A stretch of 64,000 nucleotides of DNA from an uncultured Candidatus Peribacteria bacterium (GTDB lineage Bacteria > Patescibacteriota > Gracilibacteria > Peribacterales > Peribacteraceae): positions 179 to 64,178 of the forward strand of contig CAZDKL010000004.1 in assembly GCA_964506185.1 (NCBI GenBank), written 5' to 3'. The notes under the pieces were generated by a model. That model searched no databases, was not told the DNA's origin, and saw only the letters and a list, made by a program, of their open reading frames with translations. The translations under genes were made by a program, and so were the position numbers. Numbering within the stretch: the first letter of the stretch is position 1; the number at the start of each line of letters is the position of its first letter. Of this stretch, positions 51,594-63,130 are shown piece after piece.

Positions 51594-51670
51594 AGGCGCG
51601 TAGCTCAGTTGGCTAGAGCACTGGTCTCCAAAACCAGGGGTCGAAGGTTCAAATCCTTCCGCGCCTGCCA
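51594..51670 (+). tRNA. tRNA-Trp (CCA), CCA end encoded
   Basis: AGGCGCGTAGCTCAGTTGGCTAGAGCACTGGTCTCCAAAACCAGGGGTCGAAGGTTCAAATCCTTCCGCGCCTGCCA folds as a cloverleaf with anticodon loop CTCCAAA. Confidence 0.93.
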
Positions 51671-53311
51671 CTCAATACAGAGATTTGGGTCTAATGGCCG
51701 CTTCTCTAATGTTTTAGAAACCGTATCATTACAATCAGATGATTCTAACCTTGCCTTTTGATTTGCTCCCGCAAGCGGGAACTTTGCGATAGTTGCGAAA
51801 GGTTCTTGATACTCAGCGGTCACTTTGCAGTCTTTTAGCACTAGGTTCGAACAAACAAGTAAAATAACCCCTCTCTTCTCCTCACATGAAGCCATAGCAA
51901 GATTATCCGGTAGGTTAATTAATGCTTCCACAAACGACTGGCAGTCATCAATCCATTGGGTGCCATCTCCATGAATAGCGCCGAGCTTGCTCTGAATTGA
52001 TTCTAAATCCTCGTTCAGCGCACGCTTTTGTGCAAGGTATTCTTCATCTGATAAGAGTTCTCCACTGACATTATTGGGTGATATTTTAAGCTGTAGTAGG
52101 CCATCTAGCTTCTGTTTGCAGGCATTGTACTGAGACTGCAGTTTCCTTCTTACTGACTCAGAAGATTTAGCTTCCGACTTATGGAGCTCACGGACTTTAT
52201 CACAGGCTGGCTTAATAAATGCTTCTGGAATGGACAAGTCTGTAAGTATACAAAGCAGTTGCTCCTGTAATTGTTCCTCGCGTATCCACTTGCGCTGATC
52301 ACATGAACCTTTTTTGTAAGTGCAGTGGTAGTACACGTGCCCTTTCTGCCACTCTGCAGTAATTGCACAACCACATTCACCGCATCGCATAAGACCACTG
52401 TAAGAAAACTGATGTCTGCGATGTCTTCCCTTAGATTTCCTTGCAAGTGCATGCTGTACCCGGTCAAACAGCTCTCTGGAAATTAAAGGGTCATGTTGAA
52501 TGTTTTCATTGTATATTTTTCCCTGGTAACGTATAGCTCCATAAAAGTAGGGGTTGGAGAGCAAATTTGTAAGAACACACTTGCTTAATTTCTTTTTACC
52601 ATTGCGAGTTTCTAGGCCGATCCCCTGAGCATAATTTTGGAGCCCGGCTAACGTATACACCCCCTTAGATGCCTCTTCGAATAACATTCTCAACAACTTC
52701 CCATCTATTGGGTCAATCTCCTCCCGTTTCAATGGCCTTTCCAGCTGTTCCAGTATTTGCTGCTTTTGTGGTGAGTATTGGGCTGGAGTAATGCGACCTG
52801 CCCTATCAATATTTAGAAAGCCCAATGGGACAGTCCCTGGAAGCTCGCCTTTAAGCAATTTGGATTTAATATCTCGCTTTACGAATTGGCTGTTGTCATC
52901 ACTACTTTTCTTTGCCATAGCGAAGTGTATCTGCATCATGAACTTATCGTCAGAGTGGCCTGTAAATTCACTCTCAGGTGTAATGATTTTCTTTATGACA
53001 TCATCATCCATCATGTAAATGATGCGCCCACCATCAAAGCTGTTCCTTGCCAAGCGGGTAAGGTGGTAGGTAAGTATGCAATCGACCTCGCCGGCTTCTA
53101 TCCTATTTAGCATCTTGTTAAATAATGGACGTCCTTTCTTGTACGCGCTTTGGCTCTCAACGTAGATGTCGACTATTTCGATATTATGATTCTCGGCATA
53201 TTCCAATAAGGTGCGCTTTTGGGCGTCATTACTTAGCACCTGTCGATCCTCACGTTCTTGGCTACGTCTGCAGTATGCAATTAGGCGGGTTGGGGATTCT
53301 TGATAGGACAT
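51605..53311 (-). CDS. Large serine recombinase (integrase)
   Basis: LIAYCRRSQEREDRQVLSNDAQ...CILTYHLTRLARN (resolvase domain), recombinase domain (GTVPLGF) and a Cys cluster (MRCGECGC...YYHCTYKKGSC). The last 66 nt are antisense to tRNA-Trp. Confidence 0.9.
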   Translation of the reverse strand: MSYQESPTRLIAYCRRSQEREDRQVLSNDAQKRTLLEYAENHNIEIVDIYVESQSAYKKGRPLFNKMLNRIEAGEVDCILTYHLTRLARNSFDGGRIIYMMDDDVIKKIITPESEFTGHSDDKFMMQIHFAMAKKSSDDNSQFVKRDIKSKLLKGELPGTVPLGFLNIDRAGRITPAQYSPQKQQILEQLERPLKREEIDPIDGKLLRMLFEEASKGVYTLAGLQNYAQGIGLETRNGKKKLSKCVLTNLLSNPYFYGAIRYQGKIYNENIQHDPLISRELFDRVQHALARKSKGRHRRHQFSYSGLMRCGECGCAITAEWQKGHVYYHCTYKKGSCDQRKWIREEQLQEQLLCILTDLSIPEAFIKPACDKVRELHKSEAKSSESVRRKLQSQYNACKQKLDGLLQLKISPNNVSGELLSDEEYLAQKRALNEDLESIQSKLGAIHGDGTQWIDDCQSFVEALINLPDNLAMASCEEKRGVILLVCSNLVLKDCKVTAEYQEPFATIAKFPLAGANQKARLESSDCNDTVSKTLEKRPLDPNLCIEWQARKDLNLRPLVLETSALAN

Positions 53312-53443: not shown

Positions 53444-55342
53444 TTATAGCAGATCATCTTCGTTGTCTCTAATAATCGTTTTAAACTGCTCCTTGGTCGA
53501 ATATACCCACGGAGAATTCTCAATATCTTGGTCTTCCTTCTCGCGGTTAAGAATCCCAAGGTGGTAAAGCTCTTCCAAGTATCTTTTAATTGTCTTAGTA
53601 CTCATGGTCGTGATTCCTTCAGCTACATCTCTTCCTGTCAATTGGTCGGCAAAATTAAACTGGCGCAATACCTCAGCACGCTGAACAGGCATAGACGATA
53701 GTGCCACTTTTCGTATAGTGTCCACTTCAACTTGTGTTATACCTGTTTTAGCCCGTACAGTTGCAAGCGATCGGCAAAGAGTTCTTATCTGATGCAAAGC
53801 CCGAAAGGGTTCTTCTATCTGAACTCCAATAACATCCCTATAAACCACCTCCTTCCCCTCGTCGTCGACAAACTTGTTAGTAGTGGAGTCTACAATCCCA
53901 CGAGTACGAGCGATGAATTGGGCTATGTTGTTTAGCTGTTTTTTAATCTCCGGTTCTTCTGGTTCAAGCTGTAGGCCATGCTTTTTGATATGCTCGCAAA
54001 TCGAAATAACAAGGCTTATTGATGCCTTTGCAGCCTCAATACTTATTTGTTTGAAGTTGTCGTTCCAAGCATTGCTTAAGCATTCTTCCCGCTCCTCACT
54101 TGTAAGCTCAGGTATTCGTAGAGTAAGAAACCTTGGACCAACCATATTCATGTAGTTTTGGCGCATCTTAAGGCCTTGAGGCGTCACGCAGCCCACATGG
54201 GCAAATGTAGCCTTGTAACGGATTGTGCCCCGCGATCCACTGTGCTTGGAAAACTCTCCGTCATAAATCGACACCAGATCTGACAGCAGTTTCTTTACAG
54301 TTTCTTCGCTTCTGCCAAAGAAAGAGGTGTAATCCTTAACAATAAAACAACAACCATCCAGTTGCGGTAATAGATCTTGAGGATTCTCACTTTCCTTCAT
54401 TCCGGATATAAACGGAGCGCTGGTCATCACATCTATTGCAATAGTATCCGGTGCATAACGAAGCAAGGATACAAGCTCAGTCTTGTTGGAGCTCGGTGGT
54501 CCGACTAAAAGCAGCCAGAGCGGGTTCTTTTTCACAAGTTGCTTGCTTATATATGTTGCCAATGTAATCTCAACAACGTAATCATGAACGAACCCAAGTT
54601 GTCGGGTAAGTTCAAGCACATCTGCAAGTGAAGCGGGAGGCAAATTAGAAAGGTCCCTGAATTCCATAGGAGTTTGTGTCCCGCTTGCTTTATTAAGTAG
54701 GTCCTCTGGTATGTTGCCCACCAACTTTAATAGTCGGTCGGGCAATTCATCCTGCTCTTGCCTACATTGACACGCAAAATCAGCCATATCTCCGCCCTTT
54801 TTAAATTCTATTGGCCAATGAATCATCCGTAGTTTAATGTCAGGTCTTTTATCCAAAACTAGTTTTACTGCCGCCTCCATTGCTTTCCATCCCGCTTGGT
54901 CATTGTCGAATGACAACACAAGCTCGGCATTATTCGGGACATGCTCAAGGCATGGTTCAATGGATGTGGATGCACCAGTAGTTACTGTTTGAGCAGACAT
55001 TCCGTTCTGGATAAGAATTAAACAATCAAGCTCGCCTTCGGTTTGCCACACTCGATCAGGATTCTCTTCTTTCCAATAACTTGGTCCAAAAACACCGTTC
55101 CGTTTTCCGGGATTAAAAAGCCATTTCTTCTTTGGATCGCCAATTTTCTCTGATAAAGCAACTCGCAGTTTCCAAGCCGTAGTTTTGCCGTTAGCCTTCG
55201 CATTGGGGATGCAGATGTGCCCCTTGCTATCCAAAATAGTATAGGCAATTCCTATAAGGTCTATTACCTCGTCAGTAAGGCACTTTTTGGTTTTAAGTAA
55301 TTCTCGTTCTTTATCGGGCAATGATTCTATTTTTAGGTTCAT
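53444..55342 (-). CDS. Toprim-domain primase fused to a P-loop NTPase (primase-helicase) with a C-terminal wHTH-like region
   Basis: Toprim: VWQTEGELDCLIL...LVLSFDNDQAGWKAMEAA. Walker A-like LLLVGPPSSNKTE and Walker B-like CCFIVKDYT. Confidence 0.75.
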   Translation of the reverse strand: MNLKIESLPDKERELLKTKKCLTDEVIDLIGIAYTILDSKGHICIPNAKANGKTTAWKLRVALSEKIGDPKKKWLFNPGKRNGVFGPSYWKEENPDRVWQTEGELDCLILIQNGMSAQTVTTGASTSIEPCLEHVPNNAELVLSFDNDQAGWKAMEAAVKLVLDKRPDIKLRMIHWPIEFKKGGDMADFACQCRQEQDELPDRLLKLVGNIPEDLLNKASGTQTPMEFRDLSNLPPASLADVLELTRQLGFVHDYVVEITLATYISKQLVKKNPLWLLLVGPPSSNKTELVSLLRYAPDTIAIDVMTSAPFISGMKESENPQDLLPQLDGCCFIVKDYTSFFGRSEETVKKLLSDLVSIYDGEFSKHSGSRGTIRYKATFAHVGCVTPQGLKMRQNYMNMVGPRFLTLRIPELTSEEREECLSNAWNDNFKQISIEAAKASISLVISICEHIKKHGLQLEPEEPEIKKQLNNIAQFIARTRGIVDSTTNKFVDDEGKEVVYRDVIGVQIEEPFRALHQIRTLCRSLATVRAKTGITQVEVDTIRKVALSSMPVQRAEVLRQFNFADQLTGRDVAEGITTMSTKTIKRYLEELYHLGILNREKEDQDIENSPWVYSTKEQFKTIIRDNEDDLL

Positions 55343-57797: not shown

Positions 57798-58250
57798 TCA
57801 TTCGTCATCCCAATTTTGGGTTGCCTCCTGAGTATTATTCTTCACCTTTTCATTAAGACCAGCATCATCCCAATCAGCGATTACTCGGTTTTTTGAGCAT
57901 TCCATAATCATCTGGGTAATTGTAAGATCTCCGTCCACAGAATGCACAAATCTGGGCGAATATTGCTTCTTACATCTTCTTTCAAGTACTTTTAGAGCCA
58001 AGTTACTGTCTTCTTTAATCCCTTTTGTAATCGACTTCTTGGCTTCGATTTCCAGATTCATTTGTGCAATGCGCATTTCGTCAGAAAAGTCCTTATCCTT
58101 CAGGTGTCGGTAATATGTGTCTTTGCTTATACCGGCATAATCGCAGGCTTTTTCTACGGTTAAATCCAGTTTCAGAGCCTCAGTGAGTTTTGCGATAGTA
58201 GCGGGTGTTATAACTGATGGACGACCTGTTTTTGCTTTAGAAGTTGTCAT
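57798..58250 (-). CDS. Terminase-small-subunit-like HTH protein
   Basis: KTGRPSVITPATIAKLTEALKLDLTVEKACDYAGISKDTYYRHLKDKDFSDEM...ALKVLERR. ATG 58250 is preferred over TTG 58286. Confidence 0.6.
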   Translation of the reverse strand: MTTSKAKTGRPSVITPATIAKLTEALKLDLTVEKACDYAGISKDTYYRHLKDKDFSDEMRIAQMNLEIEAKKSITKGIKEDSNLALKVLERRCKKQYSPRFVHSVDGDLTITQMIMECSKNRVIADWDDAGLNEKVKNNTQEATQNWDDE

Positions 58251-58301
58251 GAGTAAATGATATTTATCTTTACTCGGGTAAGGCAAGGAAGTGTAGTGTG
58301 G

Positions 58302-61300
58302 TTATTTAAGGCGGTGTTTTGTAAAAAGCTTATTTAACGACGATCCTCCATTAAATCCTCTGGATCCTCTATATAGTGCTTTATTTATGGTACGCCAGGT
58401 CTCACCACCACTATTTGGTATCTCACCGCTTTTTTCATTTGGCCATTTTCCATTTGTTTTATTAAAATCTTTAGCCCATTTAATGATTTTAGATTCAGAT
58501 AAACTTGGTAGATTTCTGCTATTTCTCAATCCTCTTTCCTTGCTCAATAACTTTGCAAGTGAACTGCCACTTGGTAAACCCCTAACGCCATTCTGAAGAT
58601 ATGTATCAATACTAAGCCAAGTATACTGGGGCATTTCTTTTATTTTTCCACTTTTTGTATTTGGCCACTTCCCATACTTTTTCTTGTAAGCATCGGCCCA
58701 TCCTAAAACTTGATTTACAGTTAGTGGTTTTTGCTGATGCTTGTGTTCTTTTAACCCCTTGCTTGCTAGCAAGTTAGCTAACGTTGTCTTTTGTAAACCC
58801 CTATTTCCTCGGAATAAAGCACCATCGACATCACTCCATTTCTCGTTAGGGCAATCAATTATCTTGCCTGACTTAGCAGTAGGCCATTTCCCTGTCTTTT
58901 TATGATGATTTTTAGCCCACTCAATTATTTGATCATACGTCAGTATTGGCAAAGCCCTTTTAACTCTTAGCCCCCTGTTTTTAGCAAAGACTTTTGCCAA
59001 AGACATATCTTTTGGAAGTTGTCTTGTACCTCTTATTAGAGCTGTGTTAATACCTGTCCAAGTTTCTTCTGTTCCTTCAATTTTTCCAGATCTTGTATTG
59101 GGGTACTCTGCATTTTTTTTCTTATAATCATCTGCCCATTTTAATATTTGCTCAACAGATAAATCAGGTAATTCTTTAATATGTCTTACTCCTCTATGTT
59201 CTTTTAATAACTTTGCCAACGAAGAATTCTTTGGTAATCCTCTAGAACCTAAATTCAATGCGCCATCAACAATGGGCCAAGTATCTTCTGGAGACTCATC
59301 TATACTTTCAAACAGTTTTGCATGTGGCCAGTCTCCATGTTTCTTTTTATACGAATCCATCCATTCTAGGATTAAATCTATTTTTAGATCAGCCTTTTTA
59401 GCCCCAACTTTAATAATCTTAACAAGAAGATTCTGTTCAAACTCTCTTGGTAAAACTGTGTGAATGTCGACTTTTACTTGCGACGGCATTCTCACCTTTC
59501 CGCTTGCCCTACGTTTACCAACTTCCATTCTATATCCCTCCAGCTCTTCTTTAAGCGACTCGTCGTGCTGCTGAAGAGCTTTCAAAACATATCCCACAAT
59601 CTTAAATGCAGAACTATCCAATGCCTCCTCCTCATCATCAGGATTTATAAAAACAGGTACTAGAATGGTTCCAGCCTTGTTGTCGGGGGTTTTCCTAATA
59701 GCCCGCCCCACAGCCTGCACAATGTCTATTATTGAGCTCTTGGGATCAACAAAAGCAATTCCATCCAAGGCAGGTATATCCACTCCTTCCTTAAGGCAAG
59801 CACAGTTTGTAAGAAGCGCACGTGTTGTTTTTGGTAGCGCTTTGAAATCCTCTAATAAGGTCTTCCTCTGCGATGCGGGAGTTTTTCCGGAAATATGATT
59901 GAACCAAAGGTCCTTTGCCGGTTTTCTCTTCATTAGCTTAATAGTACTAGGCAGAGAGTCTTCCTTATTCTCATCAATGAAGTCCTTTGCCTTCTTAACA
60001 GACGAATGGAAGGTTATCATCTTCGTTATGTCATATTTCTTCATCGCCTTTGCTATAGCCATCTGTGTTGCCATAGTGCGCGCATCAGAAAGGATTCCGC
60101 TTCTAGTCTTAATTAGTTTGCCTTTTTCAACCATCTCCTTGGCTTCCTCTTCAGACACAACAACAATGGCCACCTGATAGTTGTTAAGTAAATTCTGCTT
60201 AATGGCCTGCCCAAAAGAAAGCTCACTAAAAACAGGTCCGTAAAGCCCCTCGTCATCCATTGATGCTATTTCAAAGTCCACTTCGCCCGCTTTGTCCTTA
60301 ATAACCTGCTTAATGTACCTCTCGGTTGCCGTCATGAAGAGCCGCTTCTTGCCACGAATATTTTTGTCATCCAGTGCAAAAGTGAATTGCCTGCCCATAT
60401 ATCCTGTACACCTATGCGCTTCGTCAAAAATAATTAAATCAAAGTCGGGACAACCCTCCTGAGCTTCTTTTAGTAGCTTGGAGCTCTGGTATGTACAAAA
60501 CACGATAGTTGGCTTGCTTGTCTTTCTTTTGAGGAATCCATGAATCTCCTGAGCATCCGTAGTTACATCGATGCCATATGAAGAGGCCGATTCAGATTCG
60601 CCGCTATCTGTTGTTTCATCCGAGCAGATGATCAGATATTCATAATCATCTCTTCGCTCTTTGTTCCAGGACTCGACCGTTTGTGCAACAAGCGAGATTG
60701 AAGGAAATAGAACAAGTGTCCTTTTTGGTTTCATCTTTTCCTTGACCCAAAGAGATATAAGCGTCTTACCGGTACCACATGCACGAATGAGTCTGCCCCT
60801 GTTATGCTTTTTAAAACCCTTCAGCACTGCGTCAATAGCCTTCTTCTGATCGGGTCGGGGATTTTTTTTAGGTTCCCTTTTCGTTTTTTCTTTTAACTTA
60901 GTTGGCCACGGAGTCTTCTGTGCCTTTAGATCGCCACGCATTACAAGAACGCACTTCTTTGATAGCGATGAAAATAACTCCTTCGCGTTTGGACCGATTT
61001 TGTCGGTAGTGGCTATGAGCATCCTCTTGTCGATCACCTTTCGTTCGGATTCAGAAATAAAAGAATCTATTCCGCTTTTTGGGATCACATAATCCGGGCT
61101 GTAATTCTTAACCTGAATTGCCCAGATCTTTCCCTGTTTGTCCTCAGCTATCAGGTCAATTCCTTTATCAATTCCCCAGTTCTTCGGCCACTCTTCCCAC
61201 AACCAAACGTTTTGGAATTGTGGCTTAAACTCAGTTCTAGCTTCAATTAGACGCTTCTTTATAACCTTTTCAAAGGCTTTGCCGTAGGCTGTTCCCTTAG

Positions 61301-61367
61301 CTTCCTTTCTTAGTTTTGTTTCCAAATACTCAAAGCTGCCCTCTTTGAATTTTATTGCCTTAGTCAC
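58302..61367 (-). CDS. Mrr-like PD-(D/E)xK nuclease fused to an SF2 (ResIII/DEAH) helicase and five C-terminal ~73-aa repeats
   Basis: N-terminus GIDLIAEDKQGKIWAIQVKNY (Mrr_cat-like). Walker A ACGTGKTL and DEAH box IIFDEAHRC. Helicase C motifs TNCACLKEGVDIPALDG...VQAVGRAIR. The five repeats follow W.....KK.G.WP..KSGKI.....W..I..AL..G.RGLP..SSLAKLL...RG. Confidence 0.85.
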   Translation of the reverse strand: MTKAIKFKEGSFEYLETKLRKEAKGTAYGKAFEKVIKKRLIEARTEFKPQFQNVWLWEEWPKNWGIDKGIDLIAEDKQGKIWAIQVKNYSPDYVIPKSGIDSFISESERKVIDKRMLIATTDKIGPNAKELFSSLSKKCVLVMRGDLKAQKTPWPTKLKEKTKREPKKNPRPDQKKAIDAVLKGFKKHNRGRLIRACGTGKTLISLWVKEKMKPKRTLVLFPSISLVAQTVESWNKERRDDYEYLIICSDETTDSGESESASSYGIDVTTDAQEIHGFLKRKTSKPTIVFCTYQSSKLLKEAQEGCPDFDLIIFDEAHRCTGYMGRQFTFALDDKNIRGKKRLFMTATERYIKQVIKDKAGEVDFEIASMDDEGLYGPVFSELSFGQAIKQNLLNNYQVAIVVVSEEEAKEMVEKGKLIKTRSGILSDARTMATQMAIAKAMKKYDITKMITFHSSVKKAKDFIDENKEDSLPSTIKLMKRKPAKDLWFNHISGKTPASQRKTLLEDFKALPKTTRALLTNCACLKEGVDIPALDGIAFVDPKSSIIDIVQAVGRAIRKTPDNKAGTILVPVFINPDDEEEALDSSAFKIVGYVLKALQQHDESLKEELEGYRMEVGKRRASGKVRMPSQVKVDIHTVLPREFEQNLLVKIIKVGAKKADLKIDLILEWMDSYKKKHGDWPHAKLFESIDESPEDTWPIVDGALNLGSRGLPKNSSLAKLLKEHRGVRHIKELPDLSVEQILKWADDYKKKNAEYPNTRSGKIEGTEETWTGINTALIRGTRQLPKDMSLAKVFAKNRGLRVKRALPILTYDQIIEWAKNHHKKTGKWPTAKSGKIIDCPNEKWSDVDGALFRGNRGLQKTTLANLLASKGLKEHKHQQKPLTVNQVLGWADAYKKKYGKWPNTKSGKIKEMPQYTWLSIDTYLQNGVRGLPSGSSLAKLLSKERGLRNSRNLPSLSESKIIKWAKDFNKTNGKWPNEKSGEIPNSGGETWRTINKALYRGSRGFNGGSSLNKLFTKHRLK

Positions 61368-61446
61368 GGGCTTATTCTACCTCTTTGTTGGGTTTATTTT
61401 CCAAAAAATAATAGCCTTTCATAGTATCAGGGTGTATAAGTATCGT

Positions 61447-62079
61447 ATGAAAGCTGGGAAGATTTCTGCATTTATGTTGTTTACGCTGATTTTTCTAACA
61501 GCTTGCTCGCTACAAGGCAATGTGTCTTTGGACGAACTCAACGAGCTAAAAAACCGAATTGAAGTTCTCGAGGATGAAAATCAGGAGCTCAAGGAGGTAA
61601 TTGAGGATGAACAAAAAGCAGAACTGGCACCCAAGCCAACGACCCAGCCCGCACCAAAAGCAGTTGTTCCCGTAAAAGTGGATAATTCAGCAGAGCTCAA
61701 AGAGCAACGCGAGGCCTTATTAGCAATTTATTTAGATTTTAAGGATCTGGAGACGTTACTAAATGCTGAAATAAATAGAATAAGTTTGCAGCATCAGGCG
61801 ATTGCAGTGGATAACACTCGGATTGCAAAGATAATGTACGATCCATCGACACCGGATAGCGAGTTTTATGAGGCCAAAAGACAAGCGGCTGAATATGTAG
61901 AGATCATGAAGGAAACGATGCCAGAAAGTGAAAGACTGTATAAACAATTGAAGGAAGTAATAATTATGAAAACAGCCGTAGAAATAATGCGGCATAACAA
62001 TGCTGAGGGGAAGCTGCTTACTGATTCTGATTACGACAAGCTTGCAGAAATGGAGAGATGGAACAATCAATATCGATAA
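61447..62079 (+). CDS. Lipoprotein with a coiled-coil leader (paralogue family)
   Basis: MKAGKISAFMLFTLIFLTAC, then LNELKNRIEVLEDENQELKEVIED and a Pro-rich linker. Confidence 0.75.
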   Translation: MKAGKISAFMLFTLIFLTACSLQGNVSLDELNELKNRIEVLEDENQELKEVIEDEQKAELAPKPTTQPAPKAVVPVKVDNSAELKEQREALLAIYLDFKDLETLLNAEINRISLQHQAIAVDNTRIAKIMYDPSTPDSEFYEAKRQAAEYVEIMKETMPESERLYKQLKEVIIMKTAVEIMRHNNAEGKLLTDSDYDKLAEMERWNNQYR

Positions 62080-62084
62080 TTAGT

Positions 62085-62492
62085 ATGGCGAGGCTACTTT
62101 TTCTAGCACTGGCATTGATTACACTGACAGCATGTGATGCTTCAGAGCAAAGCAAGTTGCATGATGATCTTCCAGCAACAGATTCTCAGGAAGCTCGCGA
62201 AAAAATTGCCAATAGGCAATTGGTTAATATTAAATACCGAGAGGATCCTGTCGATGTTGCAGGCTTCGATTACCTAAATACTCCCCGGAGCTCTTTTGTT
62301 AGAGGTGCATGGTATGACTCCGACAACCAATACATGATTATTAACCTCAATGGCACCAATTATCATTATTGCGGACTTCCAAAGAGCACCTGGCGAAAGT
62401 TCTCTCGCTCTGATTCGTTTGGTAGATCTTATAATCAGACCATAAAGAATAGGTATGATTGTAGAATCAATCCCGTACCCAATTATGATTAA
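62085..62492 (+). CDS. Lipoprotein with a KTSC-like domain
   Basis: Lipobox LALITLTAC. FVRGAWYDSDNQYMIINLNGTNYHYCGLPKSTWRKFSRSDSFGRSYNQTIKNRYDC follows the KTSC pattern. Confidence 0.65.
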   Translation: MARLLFLALALITLTACDASEQSKLHDDLPATDSQEAREKIANRQLVNIKYREDPVDVAGFDYLNTPRSSFVRGAWYDSDNQYMIINLNGTNYHYCGLPKSTWRKFSRSDSFGRSYNQTIKNRYDCRINPVPNYD

Positions 62493-62521
62493 ATGGCTTT
62501 GGTATTACTCTCGCTCCTCAT

Positions 62522-63130
62522 ATGAAATTACTACTAACAATTCTGCCAGCTCTATTTGTGTTTACAGCCTGTAGTACTAAGACAGATCCTGCAGTAGATG
62601 ATCTCAAAGAGCGAGTAGAAAAACTTGAGGAAGAAAACCGACAATTAAAACAGAAGAAAGAACCGGCTGTTGCACCAAAGCCTGATAAAGCTGCAGTACA
62701 AAAAAAAGTACCGATAACCACAGCACCAAAGAACGAGCCAAGCGATGCACTAAAATTAAAAACCCCATGGTATATGCAACCAACTGAGTCTATACCAGAA
62801 AAACCTGTATTCTACAATTCTTCAAGCAATTTGGTGAAAGATAAATGCACAGAAATACGTAATCAAGAGGAGGCTGCAAAAAATGAAACAATGCAAAATT
62901 ATTTGGAAGCACAGACTGATCTTCGTGAGCAAAACCTTGCGTCTAGGGCAGACCTAGTATCCAAGCTCTCTCACCTAAGTCCAGCTGCAAGACAAAGGAT
63001 TCTTGCCGAACAAGATTCACTATCAAAAGAATCACTAGCCGCTATGGAAAATTTGAAAAATATTAGAATGGATGCAATTGAGTCGGCTTACGATAAAGAG
63101 TATGCCAAAAATGGGTGCAGTTTTTATTAA
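62522..63130 (+). CDS. Lipoprotein with a coiled-coil leader (paralogue family)
   Basis: MKLLLTILPALFVFTAC, then VDDLKERVEKLEEENRQLKQKKEP and a Pro/Lys linker. Confidence 0.75.
   Translation: MKLLLTILPALFVFTACSTKTDPAVDDLKERVEKLEEENRQLKQKKEPAVAPKPDKAAVQKKVPITTAPKNEPSDALKLKTPWYMQPTESIPEKPVFYNSSSNLVKDKCTEIRNQEEAAKNETMQNYLEAQTDLREQNLASRADLVSKLSHLSPAARQRILAEQDSLSKESLAAMENLKNIRMDAIESAYDKEYAKNGCSFY

Follow-up and report, generated by a model that had tools for sequence, protein, structure and literature searches.

A mobile-element gene of a Peribacteria genome joins a Type ISP-like nuclease and motor to an uncatalogued repeat array

Among single-chain translocating restriction enzymes, the Type ISP enzymes are the best understood, and both their choice of target and their protection of self DNA reside in the half of the chain that carries the methylase and the target recognition domain (TRD). 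Here we describe a gene from an uncultured Candidatus Peribacteria bacterium whose product shares the nuclease and motor of these enzymes and carries a repeat array in place of that half. The gene lies in a 64,000-nucleotide stretch of contig CAZDKL010000004.1 (assembly GCA_964506185.1, positions 179 to 64,178 of the forward strand), hereafter the window, to which all coordinates refer. Its open reading frame (ORF) occupies positions 58302–61367 on the minus strand (stop codon 58302–58304), begins with GTG and runs uninterrupted for 3066 nt, encoding a 1021-residue protein with an Mrr nuclease, a superfamily 2 (SF2) motor and five tandem repeats. An identical gene model was called on a separate, independent ENA contig (L086) from a metagenome, with the same neighbourhood. 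The three-part ORF proposed in a preliminary description of this DNA, made from the sequence alone, proved exact in its coordinates.

The sequence comparisons reported below suggest that the gene most likely has a stand-alone role as a nuclease directed against foreign DNA. The specific reading that we favour, to which we assign a probability of about one half, is a methylase-independent, translocating nuclease of the restriction type, with the repeat array selecting the target.

The nuclease and motor module

The N-terminal part of the protein is colinear with Type ISP enzymes over approximately 600 residues, an Mrr nuclease (motifs E, DxGxD and QxK) being followed by an SF2 translocase of double-stranded DNA (dsDNA) in a single polypeptide. 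In a PDB sequence search, residues 29–631 aligned with residues 34–675 of the 1578 residues of LlaBIII (4XQK, E 1.2e-74) and residues 164–632 with LlaGI (5FFJ, E 2e-56), while identity to plasmid-borne Type ISP enzymes is 31–35%. The Mrr-family PD-(D/E)xK nuclease domain, delimited by Pfam and the LlaBIII alignment, comprises residues 29–157 (60897–61283; this and all other parts of the gene are on the minus strand). The Mrr_cat_2 match itself covers residues 46–157 (E 1.5e-28), and the catalytic motifs are F32-E33 (motif I), D67-x-G69-x-D71 (motif II) and Q85-x-K87 (motif III). The SF2 helicase-like ATPase motor follows at residues 168–590 (59598–60866), with Pfam ResIII/DEAD matches at residues 168–348 and a Helicase_C match at 443–559; it has a Walker A motif (G198-T-G200-K201), a DEAH box (315–318) and a motif VI (Q551..G554-R555..R558). 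Both assignments had been anticipated in the preliminary description, which read a PD-(D/E)xK-like module from the string GIDLIAEDKQGKIWAIQVKNY and a ResIII/DEAH helicase core from ACGTGKTL, FDEAHRC and QAVGRAIR; each of these strings is present, and Pfam agrees on both domains.

In LlaGI, mutagenesis has shown D74, D78 and K94 to be essential to cleavage and E38 and Q92 to be important (PMC2790908). These residues align with D67, D71, K87, E33 and Q85 of the window protein, respectively. An alignment of 31 full-length homologues shows no variation at F32, G69, D71 and Q85 and conservation of 90% or more at E33, D67 and K87, which sets aside the earlier concern that the nuclease residues might prove variable. 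The Walker A residues G198, G200 and K201, the DEAH box and the motif VI residues Q551, G554, R555 and R558 are invariant in the same alignment. This conservation indicates that both catalytic engines are under purifying selection.

Unlike the Type ISP enzymes, the window protein has no coupler, gamma-class adenine methyltransferase or TRD, and carries the repeat array instead: Pfam, NCBIfam and PADLOC detected no methyltransferase family in the gene, and the alignments end after the motor. The best PADLOC model, for a fused Type IIG restriction endonuclease–methyltransferase, matched strongly (E 1.2e-120) over positions 5–661 only of its 1646. A short helical linker at residues 591–658 (59394–59597), in which the LlaBIII alignment ends at residue 631, connects the motor to the array. 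Pfam likewise found a methyltransferase domain in none of the 10 neighbouring proteins and, because no methylase lies nearby, the protein cannot strictly be counted as a restriction-modification enzyme. Since the methylase–TRD half has been replaced by the array, the enzyme must pick its targets and spare self DNA by another principle; with no cognate methylase protecting the host, the target would have to be something that the host lacks.

The absence of a cognate methylase is shared with the Type IV enzymes (E. coli Mrr, SauUSI and McrBC), as are the combination of a nuclease with an NTP-driven motor, the Mrr-type catalytic motif and a separate DNA-reading domain, the last being putative in the window protein. 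Unlike those enzymes, it contains no SRA, EVE/PUA, winged-helix Mrr-N or DUF3427 reader, and the PADLOC mREase_IV models matched weakly (E 2.6e-4) in the motif VI region only.

The five-repeat array and its family

The C-terminal 363 residues (58305–59393) consist wholly of five head-to-tail repeats with a period of 72–75 residues, in agreement with the earlier placement of five tandem copies between 58302 and about 59400. Repeat 1 (residues 659–733, 59169–59393) is atypical, being acidic and lacking the KSGKI motif. It is followed by repeat 2 (residues 734–806, 58950–59168), repeat 3 (residues 807–881, 58725–58949), repeat 4 (residues 882–955, 58503–58724), which is nearest to the family consensus, and the C-terminal copy, repeat 5 (residues 956–1021, 58305–58502). 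The other copies are 38–48% identical to repeat 1, with ten invariant columns, and each of the five scores 106–121 bits (domain E-values 3e-31 to 8e-36) against a profile built from these same five copies.

A query with residues 650–1021 matched 418 database proteins at E ≤ 0.001; those listed, 120 in number, contain 5–16 copies each with a 74-residue period, and the repeats are therefore far beyond chance. Three settings occur among the matches listed: Mrr and helicase domains with 6–14 repeats, a helicase without a detected Mrr domain and with about 8 repeats, and repeat-only proteins with 7–16. Repeat-only proteins without an enzyme domain (P0028, P0114, P0115 and many others) are encoded on long contigs, and some (G041 C107/C31 and G042 C143/C122) co-occur with helicase fusions in the same genomes; they might serve as decoys, as regulators or as a reserve of arrays for recombination. 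Searched against 1.84 billion cluster representatives, the five-repeat profile found 3,082 proteins at E ≤ 0.001, 1,048 of them at E ≤ 1e-30, which gives a family of approximately 3,000 clusters, mostly from Planctomycetota and Verrucomicrobiota. No model in Pfam, NCBIfam or PADLOC covers the repeats, even at E ≤ 10; where relatives bear precomputed Pfam labels (3HBD, Phage_TAC_18, Pyrophosphatase, HetR_C and others), these are short fragments that score below threshold. As judged by these searches, the 74-residue repeat is an uncatalogued family.

The array was modelled with AlphaFold2, as was repeat 4 alone. Local confidence was high for both (predicted local distance difference test scores of 91.2 for the five-repeat model and 94.6 for the single repeat), and the inter-repeat geometry is uncertain (predicted template modelling score 0.57 for the five-repeat model). 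Each unit is predicted to fold into three helices of 15, 10 and 9 residues, in that order, with a short beta-hairpin between the first and the second. Neither model had a significant match in a Foldseek comparison with the PDB: the top match of the array was PPR10 (E 0.13), and the best E-value for the single repeat was 2.0. In BFVD, the sole significant structural match of the five-repeat model was A0A8S5S295 (Foldseek E 3.3e-6, probability 1.00), an uncharacterised 466-residue protein of Siphoviridae sp. ctCIv11; giant-virus SF2 helicases gave weak matches. At the sequence level, the repeat was not found in 50,697 phage records.

The array is strongly basic, with a net charge of +30 and an isoelectric point of about 10, four of the five repeats carrying charges of +6 to +9. 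Its near-invariant columns include W11, P23, W38, R50 and R66, and its hypervariable columns fall in the hairpin loop (25, 26, 29 and 31), in helix 2 (39, 43, 46, 47 and 49) and in the linker (71–72). From this charge and column pattern, the array looks like a nucleic-acid binder. The nucleic-acid readers TALE, PPR and Pumilio are likewise tandem arrays of small helical units in which a nearly constant scaffold carries a few hypervariable positions; unlike in those families, the variable positions here have high entropy, and there is no sequence or significant structural similarity between them and the repeat. A small code of the TALE kind was rejected, since at about 3.6 bits of entropy the variable columns show no restricted alphabet.

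Array exchange and target selection

Comparison of closely related enzymes shows how the arrays vary. Where the motor–nuclease parts are 81–96% identical, the arrays differ in repeat number and lack one-to-one correspondence between repeats: paired enzymes with motor–nuclease modules 87–96% identical have 8 versus 12 copies (L012 and L013, ~96% identical), 6 versus 8 (L004 and L008) and 7 versus 10 (L010 and L006), and the highest repeat-to-repeat identity between paired arrays is 77%. On these sequence comparisons, turnover is much more rapid in the arrays than in the enzymes that carry them. Type ISP enzymes likewise combine a variable C-terminal part with near-identical N-terminal parts, LlaGI and LlaBIII being >95% identical except in the TRD (PMC3553950). 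Array turnover parallels this variation, and by analogy the array would behave as a specificity module.

A scan of GTDB genomes revealed two kinds of locus, with full-length matches (n = 24) or with matches to the motor–nuclease module only (n = 56). The full-length loci come mostly from Pirellulaceae, Gemmataceae, Planctomycetaceae, Thermoguttaceae, Kuenenia and Verrucomicrobiota. The 56 others match residues ~29–653 only, at 40–45% identity, and in at least 51 of them an array of helicase-associated (HA, PF03457) repeats replaces the 74-residue array, the remainder being cut at a contig end or lacking a called gene. Where the gene is intact, the HA arrays have 4–15 copies with a period of 67–70 residues and start at residue ~644–650. 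The window array starts at residue 659, directly after the Mrr–SF2 module, as the HA arrays do in 50+ relatives. Proteins with this Mrr_cat_2–ResIII–Helicase_C–HA(n) architecture, labelled ‘DEAD/DEAH box helicase’, are found in Actinomycetota, Pseudomonadota, Chloroflexota, Chlamydiota and others. They share the architecture of the window protein and are the nearest relatives of its motor–nuclease module outside the repeat clade, the difference being that the window repeat is 74 residues long and goes unrecognised by the Pfam HA model.

The repeats had initially been likened to HA-type repeats. That impression was right as to architecture, because arrays of HA repeats occupy this position in the nearest relatives of the motor; membership of the HA family failed in every test, with Pfam, hhalign, cross-hmmsearch, jackhmmer and Foldseek all negative or marginal. 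PF03457 had no match at E ≤ 10 to the whole protein or the isolated array, and on the HA-type sister proteins it gives E-values of 1e-53 to 1e-261. With hhalign, 776 of the 74-residue repeats aligned to 327 HA repeats at E 0.16, and the 74-residue repeats aligned to the divergent HA repeats of one locus (L021) at E 0.063, compared with 3e-18 for HA versus L021. Cross-searches of repeat against HA with hmmsearch and jackhmmer yielded nothing below E 0.1, jackhmmer recovering no HA repeat below E 0.4. The nuclear magnetic resonance structure of an HA domain, 2KTA, was absent from the 35 PDB matches that Foldseek returned for the single repeat at E ≤ 10, a search whose sensitivity is limited for 70-residue domains. 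Both marginal hhalign alignments share the same register, pairing helix 1, the G-x-(W/V)-P motif and the Trp of helix 2, so that a remote homology of the two repeats is possible.

The two array types interleave on the motor–nuclease tree, which is midpoint-rooted and weakly supported at its deep nodes. In a clade with 100% support whose other members are Planctomycetota proteins, the window protein diverges first and has the longest terminal branch (1.21 changes per site). A second clade with 74-residue repeats, from Verrucomicrobiota, lies elsewhere on the tree beside HA-type proteins, and the array type switches at least 3–4 times overall. Within a 74-residue-repeat clade, the HA-type protein L021 is sister to L009, which has the 74-residue repeat, and the pair looks like a natural swap between array types. 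L021 itself (Pirellulales metagenome-assembled genome (MAG) JBIJCJ010000098.1, 470–3748) has six HA repeats of divergent sequence (HA profile E 1.9e-40). A plasmid search found no full-length relatives, only HA-type and Type ISP N-terminal matches; the nearest was an HA-type protein (41% identity), followed by the annotated Type ISP enzymes mentioned above.

Taken as a methylase-independent restriction-type nuclease, the protein would work as follows. The array would bind DNA and select the substrate, with the variable loop and helix-2 positions giving each array its own specificity. The motor would then track along dsDNA before the Mrr domain cuts, by analogy with LlaGI and LlaBIII. Self DNA would be spared since the target is absent from the host, and not through methylation. 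Candidate targets are a base modification, as for Type IV enzymes, a sequence, or a DNA form peculiar to phages or rival elements; modified bases may be the simplest idea. In this way the gene could protect both its host and the element that carries it against foreign DNA.

An alternative is that the array binds protein or RNA, for example as a sensor of a phage protein that triggers indiscriminate DNA degradation in the manner of abortive infection. A hypervariable surface on a conserved scaffold and fast array turnover would also fit protein-recognition repeats, repeat-only proteins exist, and one AbiE pair is present among the neighbours of the homologous loci. Against this, the array is strongly positive, its HA counterpart is reported as DNA-binding (Mills 2013, as cited in PMC12191111), and the corresponding C-terminal half of Type ISP enzymes is their DNA-recognition part (PMC4666363). 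A sensor of this kind is thus unlikely.

A bolder version of the restriction-type reading is that the 74-residue unit represents a new class of modular DNA-reading repeat, with arrays that are reshuffled to give new targets to a Type ISP-like motor nuclease lacking a methylase. Each module would then use its hypervariable hairpin loop and the face of helix 2 to contact a short stretch of DNA. We regard this as speculative and rather improbable. If it were true, the 74-residue and HA-type arrays would together constitute a natural ‘array-guided’ restriction system and a new restriction type. More generally, if the array reads DNA, it would exemplify a new way to build restriction specificity and possibly a designable or programmable DNA-binding scaffold. 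The parts of the protein are known and the Mrr–helicase–HA architecture is visible in databases; the repeat, by contrast, is uncatalogued and without a solved structural relative. It is predicted to be well folded, is highly conserved and basic and populates some 3,000 clusters, yet is absent from Pfam and the PDB.

Distribution, genomic context and mobile element

The repeat is sporadically distributed. It occurred in 3 of 201 genomes in a sample of Planctomycetota (the phylum of L001), the seed genome included, and in 0 of 40 genomes from the genus, family and class of the window organism, while the motor–nuclease module was present in 1 of 300 other genomes of the host phylum. That lone other carrier (L099, G477:C10, Patescibacteria) encodes a 915-residue protein with the Mrr motif and an SF2 motor, 40% identical over residues 169–628. 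Its C-terminal ~300 residues are neither HA nor 74-residue repeats, making a third kind of C-terminal module.

No neighbour family is conserved across the 24 full-length loci, the largest neighbour cluster spanning 4 of them. ABC transporters, sulfatases, peptidases and sensor kinases make up most of the 127 neighbouring proteins, with no DNA methyltransferase among them, and in these loci, from the Planctomycetota–Verrucomicrobiota–Chlamydiota (PVC) group, no terminase, replication or integrase gene adjoins the nuclease–helicase gene. The homologues are thus not parts of restriction-modification operons or conserved replication modules, either of which would have spoken against the preliminary description. 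Its proposal of a single-gene nuclease–helicase is upheld, given the intact Mrr motif and motor, the lack of a linked methyltransferase and the lack of a conserved partner in the 24 loci. In several MAGs, the homologue (L011, L018, L019, L022 and L023) spans two adjacent ORFs, the break falling within the motor or the array and reflecting either pseudogenisation or an assembly or frameshift error.

Association of homologues with defence islands, a check suggested at the outset, was seen in a minority of loci, which do lie beside defence genes, and is not strong. Among the 127 neighbours, PADLOC identified two Mokosh MkoA proteins, one AbiEi/AbiEii pair, one PD-T4-6 and one PDC-M05 pair; further matches to mad3, mad8 and AriA most likely arise from five generic ABC ATPases in the neighbour set.

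The host is a member of the candidate phyla radiation (CPR) with a genome of 1.36 Mb, 98% complete. Among named organisms, the nearest relatives of the cysteinyl-tRNA synthetase encoded in the window are Candidatus Peribacteria, Peribacteraceae and Peregrinibacteria. Here the gene sits on an element whose core comprises a large serine recombinase (51605–53311) and a Toprim primase (53444–55342), both on the minus strand and identified with Pfam and PHROGs; the element also encodes an SLH surface protein, a small-terminase-like (terS-like) protein, the nuclease–helicase, and lipoprotein and KTSC genes. Related elements in two genomes of the same genus have only the recombinase (28% identity) and primase (55%) in common with it. 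The nuclease–helicase is therefore accessory cargo of an integrative recombinase–primase–terS element and was ruled out as one of its core genes. With recombinase, primase and terS and no virion genes within the window, the element has an architecture like that of a phage satellite.

The terS-like gene (57798–58286, minus strand) encodes a helix-turn-helix protein of 150–162 residues (phrog_4102, E 1.6e-16) and begins 15–48 bp downstream of the nuclease–helicase gene on the same strand. Because a scan found no terminator-like site between the two genes, they may be co-transcribed. This arrangement raises the alternative that the protein works for the element, as a replication or processing helicase or in cutting and packaging together with the terS-like protein, a nuclease with an ATP-driven dsDNA translocase being formally a large terminase. 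We consider this very unlikely. The replication or processing role, which had been put forward at the outset, fares poorly because related elements keep the recombinase and primase without the nuclease–helicase gene; the element has its own primase, the 24 PVC loci do not lie beside terminase, replication or integrase genes, and Pfam and NCBIfam scans of the protein revealed no similarity to TerL.

A further alternative is a role in cellular DNA repair, recombination or fork processing, in the manner of RadD, Hef or XPB, with the array holding the protein on damaged or branched DNA and not on foreign DNA. Such a role would require no methylase, most homologous loci lie among housekeeping-type genes, and in NCBIfam the motor weakly resembles RadD, XPB and Hef, each match falling under the family cut-off. 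However, RadD (E 4e-10) is a far more distant match to the motor than the Type ISP enzymes are (E 1e-74), the distribution given above is far too patchy for a maintenance function, a mobile element carries the gene here, and diversification of arrays between near-identical motors is not expected of a structure-specific repair factor. A repair function is therefore unlikely.

Several points also weigh against the restriction-type reading that we favour. DNA binding by the array is deduced from its charge and position only, and Foldseek matched the repeat significantly to no solved fold in the PDB. Association with defence islands is weak, because most homologous loci sit among ordinary metabolic genes, and without a methylase the discrimination of self from non-self must rest on another principle. 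Our literature search found no paper describing the 74-residue repeat or testing Mrr–helicase–HA proteins. Finally, the window copy has five repeats, compared with 6–14 in the full-length database matches listed and 4–12 across the genome-contig loci; given so few repeats and its very long branch, the window protein may have an altered or reduced function.

Those two features, together with the atypical repeat 1 and the split ORFs of several MAG homologues, would also fit a decaying, non-functional remnant of a horizontally acquired gene. We judge this extremely unlikely: nothing interrupts the 3066-nt frame, every motif of the nuclease and the motor is intact, and every repeat still scores above 100 bits. 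The GC content of the gene (40.6%, and 38% at third codon positions, GC3) is like that of the element and host (42–43%) and not that of the PVC homologues (52–59%, GC3 53–66%), which suggests long residence under selection. Recent transfer from Planctomycetota was rejected, because the GC and GC3 values match the host and the branch is long. The window instance stands out in having a CPR host, a satellite-like carrier and a minimal array of five repeats and, as cargo of such an element in a 1.36-Mb CPR genome, a setting from which enzymes of this kind are almost absent, bears on the defence of ultra-small bacteria and their mobile elements.

The nuclease–helicase gene was originally described as lying between a terS-like gene and a divergent lipoprotein gene with no methyltransferase near, a setting that the phrog_4102 match, a lipoprotein-like signal and the ten neighbouring proteins corroborate. 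The apparent 23-bp overlap with the divergent gene upstream, which carries that signal, disappears with the 210-residue start called on the ENA contig. The intergenic region between the two (61368–61446) contains one weak sigma-70-like match on the minus strand (61403–61374), a consensus match only and not in itself evidence of function. Divergent from the nuclease–helicase gene, three consecutive small genes for secreted or lipoprotein-like proteins with coiled-coil segments occupy positions 61345–63130 on the plus strand; one of them encodes a KTSC domain (62058–62492, E 6e-12), and all three add to the cargo of the element.

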